From IMG/VR virus record IMGVR_UViG_2663762886_000006: a stretch of DNA of 7,528 bases, one strand, 5' to 3'. This DNA is from a virus (lineage: Duplodnaviria > Heunggongvirae > Uroviricota > Caudoviricetes). Below are positions 1,278 to 7,528 of this stretch, piece by piece. Made by a program: the position numbers and the translations under genes. The notes below the pieces were generated by a model. It ran no database searches. It saw nothing but the letters and a program-made list of their open reading frames with translations, and was not told where the DNA came from. How positions within the stretch are numbered: the first letter of the stretch is position 1; each line of letters starts with the position of its first letter.

Positions 1278-4200
1278 GTGCTGGACAGTGAGGGGAATAC
1301 CAACATCTCCGGCGTCACGGTGGTGTTCCGGGCAGGTGAGCAGGAGCAGTCACCGCCGGAGGGATTTGAATCCTCCGGCTCCGAGACGGTGCTGGGTACG
1401 GAAGTGAAATATGACACGCCGATCACCCGGACCATCACGTCGGCAAACATTGACCGACTGCGTTTTACCTTCGGTGTACAGGCACTGGTGGAAACCACCT
1501 CAAAGGGAGACAGGAATCCGTCTGAAGTTCGCCTGCTGGTTCAGATACAGCGTAACGGTGGCTGGGTGACGGAAAAAGACATCACCATTAAGGGCAAAAC
1601 CACCTCGCAGTATCTGGCCTCGGTGGTGGTGGATAACCTGCCGCCGCGCCCGTTTAATATCCGGATGCGCAGAATGACGCCGGACAGCACCACAGACCAG
1701 CTGCAGAACAAAACGCTCTGGTCGTCATACACCGAAATCATCGATGTGAAACAGTGCTACCCGAACACGGCACTGGTCGGCGTACAGGTGGATTCGGAGC
1801 AGTTCGGCAGCCAGCAGGTGAGCCGTAATTATCATCTTCGCGGGCGCATTCTGCAGGTGCCGTCGAACTATAATCCGCAGACGCGGCAATACAGCGGTAT
1901 CTGGGACGGAACGTTAAAACCGGCATACAGCAACAACATGGCCTGGTGTCTGTGGGATATGCTGACCCATCCGCGCTATGGCATGGGGAAACGTCTTGGT
2001 GCGGCAGATGTGGATAAATGGGCGCTGTATGTCATCGGCCAGTACTGTGACCAGTCGGTGCCGGACGGCTTTGGCAGCACGGAGCCGCGCATCACCTGTA
2101 ATGCCTGGCTGACCACACAGCGCAAGGCGTGGGATGTGCTCAGTGATTTCTGCTCGGCGATGCGCTGTATGCCGGTATGGAACGGGCAGACGCTGACGTT
2201 CGTGCAGGACCGACAGTCGGATAAGGTGTGGGCCTATAACCGCAGTAATGTGGTGATGCCGGATGATGGCGCGCCGTTCCGCTACAGTTTCAGCGCCCTG
2301 AAAGACCGCCATAATGCCGTTGAGGTGAACTGGATTGACCCGGATAACGGCTGGGAGACGGCGACAGAGCTTGTGGAGGATACGCAGGCCATTGTCCGTT
2401 ACGGTCGTAACGTCACGAAGATGGATGCTTTTGGCTGTACCAGCCGGGGGCAGGCACACCGCGCCGGGCTGTGGCTGATTAAAACAGAACTGCTGGAAAC
2501 GCAGACCGTGGACTTCAGCGTGGGCGCAGAAGGGCTTCGCCATGTGCCGGGCGATGTCATTGAAATCTGTGATGATGACTATGCGGGTATCAGCATCGGC
2601 GGGCGCGTGCTGGCGGTAAACAGCCAGACCCGGACGCTGACGCTCGACCGTGAAATCACGCTGCCATCCTCCGGCACCACGCTGATAAGCCTGGTTGACG
2701 GGCAGGGGAATCCGGTCAGCGTGGAGGTCCAGTCCGTCACCGACGGCGTGAAGGTAAAAGTGAGCCGTGTTCCTGACGGTGTTGCTGAATACAGCGTGTG
2801 GGGGCTGAAGCTGCCGACGTTGCGCCAGCGCCTGTTCCGCTGTGTGAGTATCCGTGAGAACGATGACGGCACGTATGCCATCACTGCCGTGCAGCATGTA
2901 CCGGAAAAAGAAGCCATCGTGGATAACGGGGCGCACTTTGACGGCGACCAGAGCGGCACGGTGAATGGTGTCACGCCGCCAGCGGTGCAGCACCTGACTG
3001 CCGAAGTCACCGCAGACAGCGGGGAATATCAGGTGCTGGCGCGCTGGGACACGCCGAAGGTGGTGAAGGGCGTGAGCTTTATGCTTCGCCTGACCGTGGC
3101 AGCGGATGACGGCAGTGAGCGGCTGGTCAGCACGGCCCGGACGACGGAAACCACTTACCGCTTCACACAACTGGCGCTGGGGAACTACAGGCTGACAGTC
3201 CGGGCAGTAAATGCGTGGGGGCAGCAGGGCGATCCGGCGTCGGTATCGTTCCGGATTGCCGCACCGGCAGCGCTGTCGCGGATTGAGCTGACGCCGGGCT
3301 ATTTTCAGATAACCGCCACGCCGCATCTTGCGGTTTATGATCCGACGGTACAGTTTGAGTTCTGGTTCTCGGAAAAGCGGATTGCGGATATCAGGCAGGT
3401 TGAAACCACAGCACGCTATCTTGGCACGGCGCTGTACTGGATAGCCGCCAGTATCAATATCAAACCGGGCCATGATTATTACTTTTATATCCGCAGTGTG
3501 AACACCGTTGGCAAATCGGCATTCGTGGAGGCTGTTGGTCAGCCGAGTGATGATGCATCCGGTTATCTGGATTTTTTCAAAGGCGAGATAGGGAAAACCC
3601 ATCTGGCTCAGGAGCTGTGGACGCAGATTGATAACGGTCAGCTTGCGCCTGACCTGGCTGAAATCAGGACGTCCATTACGGATGTCAGCAATGAAATCAC
3701 GCAGACCGTCAATAAGAAACTGGAAGACCAGAGTGCGGCAATTCAGCAGATACAGAAGGTTCAGGTTGATACAAATAATAACCTGAACAGCATGTGGGCT
3801 GTGAAGCTGCAGCAGATGCAGGACGGACGCCTTTATATCGCGGGTATTGGTGCCGGTATTGAGAACACCCCTGACGGCATGCAGAGTCAGGTGCTGCTGG
3901 CGGCGGACAGGATTGCGATGGTTAATCCTGCGAATGGCAACACAAAACCGATGTTTGTTGGTCAGGGCGATCAGATATTCATGAACGACGTGTTCCTGAA
4001 ACGCCTGACGGCCCCCACCATTACCAGCGGTGGAAATCCATCGGCATTTTCCCTGACTCCGGACGGAAAGCTGACCGCTAAAAATGCGGATATCAGTGGC
4101 AGTGTGAATGCGAACGCCGGGACGCTCAACAATGTCACGGTAAATGAAAACTGTACGATTAAGGGCATGCTGGAGGCGACTCAGGTCAGAGGTGACTTCG

Positions 4201-4622
4201 TTAAAGCTGTATCCAAATCATTTCCGAAACAGGCTGGTACGTGGGGTAACACGGAAACACCAAACGGGACGGTTACAGTCACCATAAGCGATGATCATAA
4301 CTTTGACCGCCAGATTATTATTCCGCCCATTATTTTTAACGGTATAGCGTATGACGATCCGGGGAGCGGAAATAACCCAGGAGGCACGCGATACACGGGT
4401 TATGGTTTTGAAGTTCGCAAAAACGGCGTATTAATCGCATCCAGAGAAACTAAAGGTGCCATTCCCGGTAGTTACAGTGCAGTTATTGATATGCCTAGTG
4501 GTGGTGGTAGCGTCACTCTGGAGTTTAAGATTTTCCAGAAAGGCAATCAGGGGGCAGGCAATATCACCGACTGTACGGTGATTGTGACCAAAAAAGCGGC
4601 TTCCGGCATCAGTATTCGTTGA
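1278..4622 (+). CDS. J: Host specificity / tail tip protein J, 5'-truncated (begins at the equivalent of codon 52), complete to the TGA stop; conserved N-terminal and FN3-like middle regions, non-lambda C-terminal receptor-binding region
   Basis: The 1114-codon open frame starts immediately after the n at 1277. Its first ~1.1 kb repeats 160-1276 at ~98-99% identity. The middle region matches lambda J from memory (e.g. [67 protein letters not shown]). The C-terminus (...GISIR) differs from lambda (...GISVV). The GTG at 1278 is not a real start; it aligns to Val52 of fragment A. Confidence 0.9.
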
Positions 4623-4644
4623 AATATTTATAACCCCAATAAAT

Positions 4645-4668
4645 GGCGTCAGGAATGACGCCTTTTTT
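4645..4668 (+). terminator. Rho-independent terminator downstream of J
   Basis: Perfect 7-bp stem GGCGTCA (4645-4651) / TGACGCC (4656-4662) with a GGAA loop, followed by TTTTTT (4663-4668), 23 nt after the J stop codon. Confidence 0.75.
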
Positions 4669-4681
4669 ATTGCAGAAAAGC

Positions 4682-4687
4682 GAGAGG
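4682..4687 (+). promoter_or_regulatory. Shine-Dalgarno-like GAGAGG, 5 nt upstream of the ATG at 4693
   Basis: Purine-rich GAGAGG with 5-nt spacing to the ATG; position is appropriate for the downstream gene start. Confidence 0.5.
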
Positions 4688-4692
4688 TAATT

Positions 4693-4699
4693 ATGCGTA
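4693..4699 (+). CDS. First 7 nt (ATG CGT A) of the gene downstream of J, truncated by nn at 4700-4701; possibly lom-like (outer membrane protein) by position and first two codons only
   Basis: ATG preceded by an SD and a terminator. In lambda the gene after J is lom, which I recall beginning ATGCGTAAT (Met-Arg-Asn). Only two codons are visible, so the identity is weak inference. Confidence 0.3.
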
Positions 4700-4701
4700 N
4701 N

Positions 4702-6295
4702 TCAGGTGCTGGCGCGCTGGGACACGCCGAAGGTGGTGAAGGGGGTGAGCTTTATGCTTCGCCTGACCGTGGCAGCGGATGACGGCAGTGAGCGGCTGGT
4801 CAGCACGGCCCGGACGACGGAAACCACATACCGCTTCACGCAACTGGCGCTGGGACGGTACACGCTGACAGTCCGGGCGGTAAATGCCTGGGGACAGCAG
4901 GGCGATCCGGCGTCGGTATCGTTCAGGATTGCCGCACCGGTAGCACCGTCGCGGATTGAGCTGACGCCGGGCTATTTTCAGATAACTGCCACGCCGCATC
5001 TTGCGGTTTATGATCCGACGGTACAGTTTGAGTTCTGGTTCTCGGAAAAGCGGATTGCGGATATCAGGCAGGTTGAAACCACAGCACGCTATCTTGGCAC
5101 GGCGCTGTACTGGATAGCCGCCAGTATCAATATCAAACCGGGCCATGATTATTACTTTTATATCCGCAGTGTGAACACCGTTGGCAAATCGGCATTCGTG
5201 GAGGCTGTTGGTCAGCCGAGTGATGATGCATCCGGTTATCTGGATTTTTTCAAAGGCGAGATAGGGAAAACCCATCTGGCTCAGGAGCTGTGGACGCAGA
5301 TTGATAACGGTCAGCTTGCGCCTGACCTGGCTGAAATCAGGACGTCCATTACGGATGTCAGCAATGAAATCACGCAGACCGTCAATAAGAAACTGGAAGA
5401 CCAGAGTGCGGCAATTCAGCAGATACAGAAGGTTCAGGTTGATACAAATAATAACCTGAACAGCATGTGGGCTGTGAAGCTGCAGCAGATGCAGGACGGA
5501 CGCCTTTATATCGCGGGTATTGGTGCCGGTATTGAGAACACCCCTGACGGCATGCAGAGTCAGGTGCTGCTGGCGGCGGACAGGATTGCGATGGTTAATC
5601 CTGCGAATGGCAACACAAAACCGATGTTTGTTGGTCAGGGCGATCAGATATTCATGAACGACGTGTTCCTGAAACGCCTGACGGCCCCCACCATTACCAG
5701 CGGTGGAAATCCATCGGCATTTTCCCTGACTCCGGACGGAAAGCTGACCGCTAAAAATGCGGATATCAGTGGCAGTGTGAATGCGAACGCCGGGACGCTC
5801 AACAATGTCACGGTAAATGAAAACTGTACGATTAAGGGCATGCTGGAGGCGACTCAGGTCAGAGGTGACTTCGTTAAAGCTGTATCCAAATCATTTCCGA
5901 AACAGGCTGGTACGTGGGGTAACACGGAAACACCAAACGGGACGGTTACAGTCACCATAAGCGATGATCATAACTTTGACCGCCAGATTATTATTCCGCC
6001 CATTATTTTTAACGGTATAGCGTATGACGATCCGGGGAGCGGAAATAACCCAGGAGGCACGCGATACACGGGTTATGGTTTTGAAGTTCGCAAAAACGGC
6101 GTATTAATCGCATCCAGAGAAACTAAAGGTGCCATTCCCGGTAGTTACAGTGCAGTTATTGATATGCCTAGTGGTGGTGGTAGCGTCACTCTGGAGTTTA
6201 AGATTTTCCAGAAAGGCAATCAGGGGGCAGGCAATATCACCGACTGTACGGTGATTGTGACCAAAAAAGCGGCTTCCGGCATCAGTATTCGTTGA
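4702..6295 (+). CDS. J: Host specificity protein J, C-terminal fragment (about 531 codons, codon phase starts at 4703), second copy of the J 3' end with stop
   Basis: By eye, identical to 3029-4622 from about 5000 onward; the 5' ~300 nt carries about ten substitutions relative to fragment B and instead matches fragment D. Same TGA stop context (...[10 protein letters not shown]). Confidence 0.88.
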
Positions 6296-6317
6296 AATAT
6301 TTATAACCCCAATAAAT

Positions 6318-6341
6318 GGCGTCAGGAATGACGCCTTTTTT
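6318..6341 (+). terminator. Rho-independent terminator, second copy
   Basis: Identical hairpin GGCGTCA-GGAA-TGACGCC plus TTTTTT; same offset (+1673) as the rest of the B/C repeat. Confidence 0.75.
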
Positions 6342-6354
6342 ATTGCAGAAAAGC

Positions 6355-6360
6355 GAGAGG
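6355..6360 (+). promoter_or_regulatory. Shine-Dalgarno-like GAGAGG, second copy, 5 nt upstream of the ATG at 6366
   Basis: Same sequence and spacing as 4682-4687. Confidence 0.5.
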
Positions 6361-6365
6361 TAATT

Positions 6366-6372
6366 ATGCGTA
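6366..6372 (+). CDS. First 7 nt (ATGCGTA) of the downstream gene, second copy, truncated by the N run
   Basis: Identical to 4693-4699 and cut at the same nucleotide. Confidence 0.3.
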
Positions 6373-6390
6373 NNNNNNNNNNNNNNNNNN
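6373..6390. other. Assembly gap (18 N); two further ambiguous junctions lie at 1277 (n) and 4700-4701 (nn)
   Basis: Runs of n in the sequence; the flanking sequence is non-collinear (J restarts upstream on the right-hand side of each junction). Confidence 0.95.
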
Positions 6391-7528
6391 CAGCACGGCC
6401 CGGACGACGGAAACCACATACCGCTTCACGCAACTGGCGCTGGGACGGTACACGCTGACAGTCCGGGCGGTAAATGCCTGGGGACAGCAGGGCGATCCGG
6501 CGTCGGTATCGTTCAGGATTGCCGCACCGGTAGCACCGTCGCGGATTGAGCTGACGCCGGGCTATTTTCAGATAACTGCCACGCCGCATCTTGCGGTTTA
6601 TGATCCGACGGTACAGTTTGAGTTCTGGTTCTCGGAAACGCGGATTACCGATATCAGGCAGGTTGAAACCACAGCCCGCTACCTTGGCGCGGGGCTGTAC
6701 TGGATAGCCGCCAGTATCAATATCAAACCGGGCCATGATTATTACTTTTATATCCGCAGTGTGAACACCGTTGGCAAATCGGCATTCGTGGAGGCCGTCG
6801 GTCGGGCGAGCGATGATGCGGAAGGTTACCTGGATTTTTTCAAAGGCAAGATAACCGAATCCCATCTCGGTAAAGAGCTGCTGGAAAAAGTTGATCTGAC
6901 GGAGGATAACGCCAGCAGACTGGATGAGTTTTCGAAAGAGTGGAAGGACGCTAACGATAAATGGAATGCGATGTGGGGCGTCAAAATTGAGCAGACCAAA
7001 GACGGCAAACATTATGTCGCGGGTATTGGCCTCAGCATGGAGGACACGGAGGAAGGCAAGCTGAGCCAGTTTCTGGTTGCCGCCAATCGTATCGCGTTTA
7101 TTGACCCGGCAAACGGGAATGAAACGCCGATGTTTGTGGCGCAGGGCAACCAGATATTCATGAACGACGTGTTCCTGAAGCGCCTGACAGCCCCCGCCAT
7201 TACCAGCGGTGGCAGTCCTCCGGTATTTTCCCTGACATCAGACGGAAAGCTGACCGCTAAAAATGCGGATATCAGTGGTAGTGTGAATGCGAACTCAGGA
7301 ACGCTCAACAATGTCACGATTAACCAGAACTGTACGATTAAGGGCATGCTGGAGGCGACCCAGGTCAGAGGGGATTTCGTTAAAGCTGTATCAAAAGCCT
7401 TCCCGAAAAAAGTCGGTACGTGGGGTAACACGGAAACACCAGACGGTACGGTTACAGTCACCATCAGCGATGATCATAACTTTGACCGCCAGATTATTAT
7501 TCCGCCCATTATTTTTAACGGTATAGCG
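6391..7528 (+). CDS. J: Host specificity protein J, internal/C-terminal fragment of a third, mosaic allele (codon phase starts at 6392; truncated at both ends by the N run and the window edge)
   Basis: My own translation from 6392 is open to 7528: [46 protein letters not shown]...[117 protein letters not shown]...[53 protein letters not shown]. The central part matches lambda J from memory. This frame is not in the supplied ORF track. Confidence 0.85.

Follow-up and report, generated by a model that had tools for sequence, protein, structure and literature searches.

The locus analysed here raises the question of which outer-membrane receptor is recognised by a lambdoid J allele whose C-terminal part departs from that of lambda, and whether the additional codons carried by this allele contribute to the choice. 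The window, i.e., the whole stretch of 7,528 nucleotides of phage DNA under analysis, is composed of four J fragments (A to D) linked by N runs, and all features described below lie on its plus strand. Fragment B contains a frame at positions 1278-4622 that corresponds to the 3' part of J. This frame has 1114 uninterrupted codons (J residues 52-1165, with the stop codon at 4620-4622), its 5' end is cut by an N at position 1277, and the deduced complete J product comprises 1165 amino acids.

The identity of the gene was established by profile and pairwise searches. Using phmmer, the frame matches the solved gpJ chain 8iyk_J over residues 53-1131 with 2016 bits, and the NCBIfam model lambda_TipJ gives 2204.8 bits (cut-off 1950). 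Six Pfam gpJ domains, including FNIII-A_GpJ, Phage-tail_3, Ig_J, Ig_J_second and Ig_GpJ_C, exceed their cut-offs. By this full-length collinear homology, in which all domains are represented, the gene is a lambda-type tip attachment (central tail fibre) gene J (TipJ). Its conserved body (positions 1278-3532, residues 52 to ~803) covers the hub domains, the FNIII/Ig domains and the first part of the shaft, and shares 97-98% protein identity with lambda, 434 and 21, and about 97% with the chains 8iyk_J and 9e7m.

We further made a global alignment of the translated frame 1278-4619 with the lambda reference gpJ from NC_001416. The identity is 96-97% up to lambda residue ~820, falls to 36-40% over residues 821-880, where the window J has 28 extra residues, recovers to 76-77% over residues 871-985, and drops again to 38-40%, with several indels, over residues 986-1132. 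The first-pass annotation had J tracking lambda closely up to about residue 850; the close tracking is confirmed but its limit is not, as the divergence begins at residue ~806. At the nucleotide level, the proposed start of divergence near 3540 agrees with the dense mismatches to lambda that begin at 3533-3541. The nucleotide mismatch maps have abrupt boundaries at ~3533, ~3971 and ~4116. What had been taken for a single variable region does contain non-lambda stretches, but it consists of two modules split by ~144 nt with seven mismatches. The base composition follows the same layout, as had been noticed from the AT-rich 3' stretches: G+C content is 0.587 in the body (1278-3500), 0.51 at 3501-3980 and 0.479 at 4161-4619, while lambda's own receptor-binding domain has a value of 0.548.

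Module 1 (positions 3533-3971, residues ~804-950) encodes a variant of the alpha-helical shaft and the upper part of the central straight fibre. Compared with its counterparts in lambda, 434 and fragment D, it has 84 additional nt (28 codons), and the extra residues are located at ~3630-3722. The earlier estimate of about 28 codons relative to fragment D proved exact, since the GQPS-to-NSMW interval measures 83 residues in fragment B versus 55 residues for GRAS-to-NAMW in fragment D. Over the stretch equivalent to lambda residues 816-925, module 1 demonstrates 51-52% identity and 28 gap columns in comparison with lambda and 434, 97% identity to phage 21 J (134/138, 0 gaps) and 100% to phi458 J. 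It is therefore a long shaft module of the phage 21 type, with the same sequence and length as in phage 21. At a nucleotide identity of at least 95%, the long shaft is present in 65 phage records. Its carriers at 95-100% include phage 21, VT1-Sakai, Lambda_4B5, ev017, PhiR70_1 and 640R1, whose receptor-binding domains share only 45-50% identity with that of the window, so that the same shaft is paired with at least three receptor-binding domain types.

Several observations bear on the structure and origin of the extension. The lambda shaft spans roughly residues 809-861 (PMC11101478). In the window J, large hydrophobic residues recur every three to four positions between ~840 and ~880, the heptad-register score of the shaft obtained with a simple scoring scheme is weak, and a single-sequence AlphaFold2 monomer model of residues ~789-1165 places a helix at about 844-878, albeit in a poor, low-confidence model (mean pLDDT 43, pTM 0.33). 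The fold itself is settled by the sequence matches to solved gpJ. Tandem duplication was considered as a source of the extra 84 nt and rejected, as Tandem Repeats Finder returned no repeat over positions 3480-4000.

The 28-codon insertion had been assigned to the receptor-binding region; this assignment is not upheld, as the extra codons sit in the alpha-helical shaft. We find it extremely unlikely that the extension belongs to the receptor-determining region and helps to steer the phage away from LamB, although it lies inside the C-terminal ~330 residues that are loosely termed the host-range region and occurs together with the 434-type domain described below in 25 phage records. Phage 21, which possesses the extension at 97% identity, natively uses LamB (PMC11336670), whereas 434 and lambda h434 use OmpC without it, which makes the extension uninformative on receptor choice. 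Moreover, it maps to a part of the fibre that is distant from the receptor in the lambda structure (PMC11101478), and the domains with which it is combined belong to at least three types. The extension is thus not a receptor determinant, and the longer shaft most likely alters only the length of the tip, with specificity unchanged.

Module 2 (positions 4116-4619, residues ~998-1165) encodes an Ig-like receptor-binding domain of the 434 type together with the last strands of the fibre. Its Ig-like character is supported by a match to Ig_GpJ_C (E = 3e-25) and by the solved lambda domain 8xcj, which is homologous at E = 2e-38. Over the stretch equivalent to lambda residues 986-1132, the identity reaches 95% for 434 J (145/152, 0 gaps) and for lambda h434 J (144/152, 0 gaps), versus 42% with 11 gap columns for phage 21 and 40% (56/141) with 17 gap columns for lambda; nucleotide identity to lambda is ~50% from position 4160 on. 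Consistent with these values, a tblastn search with the 186-residue query encoded at 4062-4619 gave 94.1% identity to lambda h434 imm21. The earlier statement that the last ~150 residues are unlike the LamB-binding C-terminus of lambda is thus borne out: comparison with characterised J proteins gave 40%, rather than high, identity to gpJ 986-1132, and the domain is a 434-type (h434) receptor-binding domain, near-identical to that of 434 J and free of indels. In a scan with one genome per species, the 434-type domain turned up in E. coli, in Escherichia sp. E1V33 and on one 1350-bp contig binned into a Collinsella MAG, and nowhere else. The copy of the PDB that was searched contains neither a solved 434-type domain nor a complex with OmpC.

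The domain is not invariant, and nine substitutions separate it from 434 within the last ~160 residues, including those at 434 positions 1108, 1110 and 1115; at the last of these, 434 has R, lambda h434 has W and the window J has G (G1143). Such differences could mean that the 434-type domain has drifted towards another receptor, a particular OmpC allele or a wider range (OmpC plus OmpF or LamB), and in phage 21 single J mutations are known to widen the range of receptors (PMC11336670), as has also been discussed for lambda (PMC11101478). We regard this drift as unlikely, given 95% identity to 434 with no indels, while other receptor-binding domain types differ by 50-60% and with indels. In addition, six of the nine substitutions are common to phi458, suggesting ordinary polymorphism within one domain type.

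The two modules are separated by a conserved central-fibre segment (positions 3972-4115, residues ~950-997) that differs from lambda at only seven of its 144 nt and includes the C-terminal portion of the region equivalent to lambda residues 902-933. The equivalents of Q922 and F924, in connection with which a HepS trigger has been described (PMC13043305), are kept in the window J, the latter as F952. The segment is probably a joint for homologous recombination. The suspected horizontal exchange is supported by the sharp module boundaries and by near-identical counterparts in phage 21 for 3533-3971 and in 434 for 4116-4619, and the region represents a clear case of modular exchange within one tail-fibre gene, the modules being joined at a conserved segment of the fibre. 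The combination of a short shaft with a 434-type domain occurs in 434, lambda h434 and fragment D, and, judged from these sequence pairings, shaft and receptor-binding modules assort independently.

With respect to the receptor, 434 and lambda h434 use OmpC and not LamB, and replacement of lambda J by 434 J moves binding from LamB to OmpC (PMC3509688, PMC11101478). With a receptor-binding domain that shares 95% identity with those of 434 and lambda h434, the window allele is likely to have OmpC rather than LamB as its receptor. The previously suggested use of a receptor other than LamB fits this homology with reported OmpC users. The J gene of lambda h434 imm21 narrows the relevant part further: it matches lambda near-perfectly as far as the equivalent of window positions ~3971-4028 and is of the 434 type only from ~4116, and therefore its 434-derived J part is essentially module 2. 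It should be noted that the lambda h434 hybrid also has 434-derived lom and stf genes 3' of J, so this hybrid alone does not isolate the receptor-binding domain as the sole determinant.

In phage 21, a single mutation in J is enough to gain use of OmpC (PMC11336670), so specificity can be shifted by a small number of changes. We see a slim chance that the substitutions relative to 434, above all those at and near position 1115, adapt the domain to a different porin or to certain OmpC variants, or that the long shaft combined with an OmpC tip alters the reach or the trigger threshold, resulting in a host range that is not predicted by 434. No experimentally determined receptor was found in the literature for phages with exactly this allele (phi458, Ayreon, cdtI, mEp332 and the PhiR phages). 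Two further phages were considered as points of reference and set aside. The first, phi330, with WGPS6 as the closest overall, needs OmpC, as shown by knockout and complementation (PMC12502783), but its domain is only 35-40% identical to that of 434. The second, Gifsy-1, has a distant J, whose C-terminal identity to lambda its authors give as 18%, and is uninformative for this purpose.

Taken together, we consider it highly probable that the C-terminal third of this presumably intact J is a recombinant that combines a long shaft of the phage 21 type with a receptor-binding domain of the 434 type, with OmpC as the most likely porin and with the shaft affecting length only. Under this reading, module 1 would supply, in the long form known from phage 21, a trimeric alpha-helical shaft and the uppermost part of the beta-prism fibre, module 2 would supply the Ig-like receptor-binding domain in its 434 form, and homologous crossover would take place in the conserved fibre stretch of ~144 nt. 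By homology to lambda gpJ, three copies of the receptor-binding domain at the tail tip would dock onto a trimeric outer-membrane porin, after which the docking signal would pass up the fibre, the shaft would flip and the tail tube would open for DNA ejection. The homotrimeric tip mechanism is taken from the lambda structures (PMC11101478), and OmpC binding, trimer formation and triggering are all extended to the window allele by homology.

The arrangement of the window itself calls for caution. Fragment C carries both modules and the conserved segment between them a second time (positions 5206-6292, offset +1673 from fragment B); positions 4988-6372 are an exact base copy of 3315-4699, and fragments B and C share their end base. 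Fragment D (positions 6391-7528, residues ~670-1047 in lambda/434 numbering) is another J allele that runs off the end of the window. It has a short lambda/434-type shaft at ~6800-6985, followed by the start of a 434-type receptor-binding domain from ~7295, and every 60-nt block of it demonstrates 92-100% nucleotide identity to lambda h434 J. The first-pass annotation had called the shorter module in fragment D lambda-type, which is correct for the shaft, but the fragment also has the start of the same non-lambda receptor-binding domain as the window allele.

The four-fragment arrangement is most likely an assembly artefact. Accordingly, one may ask whether the allele is a decaying, functionless remnant of a cryptic prophage and the mosaic a by-product of mis-assembly, as the four J fragments joined by N runs and the common end base of B and C indicate that the local arrangement is not real. 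We judge this very unlikely, since the 1114-codon frame in fragment B is unbroken and the same junction between modules 1 and 2 is present at 97-100% identity in complete plaque-forming phages such as phi458, Ayreon and mEp332. Its presence in single, completely sequenced phages means that the mosaic is not an assembly chimera. A complete expressed gene cannot be claimed from the window because of its fragmentary nature.

Downstream of the stop codon, fragment B extends for only 77 nt, which contain a terminator and the sequence ATGCGTA; the fragments are cut upstream as well. The terminator scan placed a terminator-like hairpin, GGCGTCAGGAATGACGCC, followed by TTTTTT, at positions 4645-4668 in the gap between J and the next gene, and a terminator is annotated at the equivalent site in the records of phages 434 and 21. 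The next gene starts with the seven nucleotides ATGCGTA at 4693-4699, preceded by GAGAGG, and fragment B ends there. This gene is probably lom: in E. coli genomes, matches that also cover these nucleotides bear the annotation Ail/Lom family outer-membrane protein, and a Lom-family gene lies 3' of the matching J in phi458, 434 and E. coli genomes.

Of 5426 complete E. coli genomes, 1164 contain a match with at least 80% coverage of the region, as do 25 phage records. The allele is a common gpJ variant that has been sequenced and annotated before; its mosaic anatomy, the identities of its modules and its prevalence are directly observed. The practical use lies in annotation: the last ~165 codons of J tell the receptor class of a lambdoid prophage, whichever shaft lies upstream, and on this basis the window allele, carried by roughly one in five complete E. 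coli genomes, would be assigned to the 434 (OmpC) class and not to the LamB class. Both modules, the way they are combined and the likely receptor had been documented before, and the result, although genuine, is unremarkable and opens no new question.

Among the known systems, the Stx phage phi330 resembles the window J in being a long-tailed lambdoid phage with a lambda-J-like central fibre, but its receptor-binding domain is of another type, and the domains of phi330, 434 and lambda are reported to be only 35-40% identical to each other (PMC12502783). Lambda gpJ (NP_040600; 8iyk, 8xcg, 8xci, 8xcj and 8xck) has the same order of hub, two FNIII domains, shaft, beta-prism fibre and Ig-like domain, with 97% identity to residue ~805 and a conserved F924 fibre segment, whereas its shaft is 28 residues shorter and its LamB-binding domain is 40% identical with indels. 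Phage 21 J (OL657228) shares the body (98%) and the 97% identical shaft and upper fibre with the 28 additional residues, but has a domain that is 42% identical and uses LamB (PMC11336670) versus the inferred OmpC. The J of 434 and lambda h434 (OL657226, OM418627), to which fragment D is essentially equal, agrees with the window J in the domain (95%, no indels), the body (98%) and, probably, the order J-terminator-lom, and differs in its short lambda-type shaft with 28 fewer residues and in nine domain substitutions including R1115G. The same mosaic is found at 94-96% nucleotide identity in cdtI, Ayreon, mEp332, ev243 and Stx2a_WGPS6. Finally, phi458 J (OP434518) has the same full mosaic and the same length of 1165 amino acids, with 97.3% nucleotide identity over 3540-4622 and 97-100% protein identity per segment, the scattered point differences being located mostly in the last 340 nt.

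Runs of N at 1277, 4700-4701 and 6373-6390 divide the 7528-nt window into four pieces, all of which are parts of lambda-type J genes (encoding the tail-tip attachment protein gpJ), so the window does not represent a single continuous locus. Fragment A (1-1276) encodes J residues 1-423, fragment B (1278-4699) residues 52-1165 followed by 77 nt 3' of the gene, fragment C (4702-6372) the final 530 residues with the same 77 nt, and fragment D (6391-7528) 379 residues from the interior of another J allele. Since positions 3315-4699 of fragment B are base-for-base identical to positions 4988-6372 of fragment C, with the end base common to both, the window has the appearance of a draft-assembly scaffold in which prophage repeats were collapsed, rather than of a true tandem array; contigs that end at a repeat boundary in draft assemblies typically give such a pattern. 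The overlap between fragments A (160-1276) and B (1278-2394) is identical over the first ~490 nt and then contains 16 differing positions, beginning at 651/1769, that lead to four amino-acid changes; these fragments are different J copies or the consensus of several. A 562-codon open frame antisense to J (minus strand, 1914-3602), with shorter versions recurring in other fragments, most likely reflects the G+C-rich codon usage of J and not a gene of its own.

The frame 1278-4622 of fragment B, which holds the region in question (3540-4619), aligns end to end with the solved lambda gpJ (8iyk_J, residues 53-1131). Aligned globally with lambda J (NC_001416), the frame shows identities of 96-97% over lambda residues 53-820, 36% with 28 extra residues over 821-870, and 76% over 871-985. 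The first-pass annotation had placed the onset of a variable C-terminal region at residue ~850; the region is real, whereas the alignment and the mismatch map move its onset to residue ~806. Its claim that the last ~150 residues are unlike lambda agrees with 40% identity and 17 gap columns over lambda 986-1132, and the ~28-codon insertion relative to fragment D proved to be exactly 28 codons. The variable stretches are also more AT-rich than the J body, as had been proposed (G+C content of 0.51 and then 0.479 versus 0.587; lambda's own receptor-binding domain has 0.548). Nucleotide mismatches to lambda become dense from 3533-3541, cease at 3971 and resume at ~4116. The variable region of this 1165-aa protein consists of two modules, module 1 (3533-3971, shaft and upper fibre) and module 2 (4116-4619, receptor-binding domain), with a conserved stretch of ~144 nt between them (3972-4115).

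The C-terminal part of lambda gpJ comprises two FNIII domains, an alpha-helical shaft, a beta-prism central straight fibre and an Ig-like receptor-binding domain, which reaches into LamB with the four loops at its bottom; within the shaft, the upper helix spans residues 809-840 and the segment 841-861 turns to beta-sheet upon opening (PMC11101478). The 28 extra residues align at approximately lambda 835-839, a position inside the shaft and distant from the receptor. In the extended stretch, large hydrophobic residues recur every 3-4 positions, as a helical bundle would predict; a single-sequence structure model was of too poor quality to corroborate this. Pfam assigns the fibre to Phage_Tail_Tip and the last 136 residues to Ig_GpJ_C (E = 3e-25), and the receptor-binding domain alone matches the solved lambda domain (E = 2e-38), so its fold is common to lambda while the sequence differs, above all around indels. 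Another solved J C-terminal fragment, 'A8 gpJ 713' (PDB 9wca/9wcb), matches the window with E = 2.6e-47, better than lambda's 2.1e-38; its receptor-binding domain resembles that of phage 21 (e.g., NNQQSYWYSTC...).

When the last 186 residues were used for a translated search of the phage collection, the matches fell into two groups, at 94-99% and at most 51% identity, with a single record between them; lambda h434 imm21 (OM418627), a lambda hybrid with the phage 434 host range, belongs to the former. We aligned J proteins from this hybrid, wild-type 434 (OL657226), phage 21 (OL657228) and phi458 (OP434518). In the body (lambda 53-815), fragment B J is 97% identical to lambda and 98% to each of 434, 21 and phi458. 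In the shaft and upper fibre (lambda 816-925), the identity is 51% to lambda and 52% to 434 (28 gaps each), 97% to phage 21 (no gaps) and 100% to phi458, and in the receptor-binding domain (lambda 986-1132) it is 40% to lambda, 95% to 434 (no gaps), 42% to phage 21 and 97% to phi458. By these segment identities, the fragment B allele carries a phage-21-type shaft and a phage-434-type receptor-binding domain, joined on a J body common to these phages. Fragment D, 92-100% identical to lambda h434 at the nucleotide level in each 60-nt block, has a short shaft with a 434-type receptor-binding domain, like J of 434 and lambda h434, and is essentially the 434 allele. Given this second allele, at least two J genes of one receptor-binding type with different shaft modules appear to be present in the source genome.

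Replacement of lambda J by the phage 434 gene is reported to move binding to OmpC, the receptor of 434 (PMC3509688; PMC11101478). The J of lambda h434 matches lambda nearly perfectly as far as the equivalent of ~3971-4028 and is 434-type only from ~4116, so its 434-derived part is essentially module 2; as a caveat, the hybrid also has 434 lom and stf 3' of J. Module 1 is matched at 95-100% nucleotide identity in VT1-Sakai, Lambda_4B5, ev017, PhiR70_1 and 640R1, whose receptor-binding domains share only 45-50% identity with that of this allele, and the long shaft is found with several other domain types. Phage 21 likewise has a long shaft, yet its native receptor is LamB (PMC11336670). From such pairings, modules 1 and 2 assort independently, and receptor choice goes with module 2. 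Binding to OmpC is the best explanation for this allele, judging from the 95% identity of its receptor-binding domain to 434; ejection would then be triggered in the manner of lambda gpJ, and the longer shaft would change tip geometry alone. The literature yielded no receptor determination for phages carrying exactly this allele. The OmpC-dependent phage phi330 was discarded as support, its receptor-binding domain being of a different type. A specificity shifted or broadened relative to 434 appears quite unlikely, even with nine differences from 434 in the receptor-binding region and although phage 21 can gain a receptor through single J mutations (PMC11336670). Residue 1143 (codon 4551-4553), the counterpart of 434 residue 1115, may be a host-range hot spot: this allele has G, 434 and phi458 have R, and the laboratory hybrid lambda h434 has W. 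Close to it are two more differences from 434, at residues 1136 and 1138.

The lambda J 902-933 peptide has been reported to trigger HepS, an abortive-infection nuclease of Gifsy-1 (PMC13043305). Its equivalent is conserved in fragment B (residues ~930-961; listed as 3828-3923 under lambda numbering 902-933), including the counterparts of Q922 and F924 (the latter being F952, 3978-3980), and on this basis the protein is predicted to trigger HepS. Downstream, J is separated from the start codon of the next gene, probably lom (4693-4699; copy at 6366-6372), by a strong hairpin that resembles a terminator and has a T run (4645-4668; copy at 6318-6341). The phage 434 and 21 records have a terminator annotated likewise between J and the next gene.

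At least 80% of the region is covered in 25 phage records and in 1164 of the 5426 complete E. coli genomes, where the matched gene is annotated as gpJ and followed by an Ail/Lom family gene. The NCBI lambda_TipJ model has 1163 positions and therefore stands for the long form of J. In a scan of a single genome for each species, the 434-type domain was found only in Escherichia and on one short contig of a Collinsella MAG (JAGZNZ010000056.1, 1350 nt), which encodes a receptor-binding domain 99% identical to that of the window and is probably a wrongly binned Escherichia prophage fragment. The allele is already known and assembled from known modules, a correct but ordinary finding; the full mosaic has 97.3% nucleotide identity to phi458 over 3540-4622 and 94-96% to cdtI, Ayreon, mEp332, ev243, Stx2a_WGPS6 and others.
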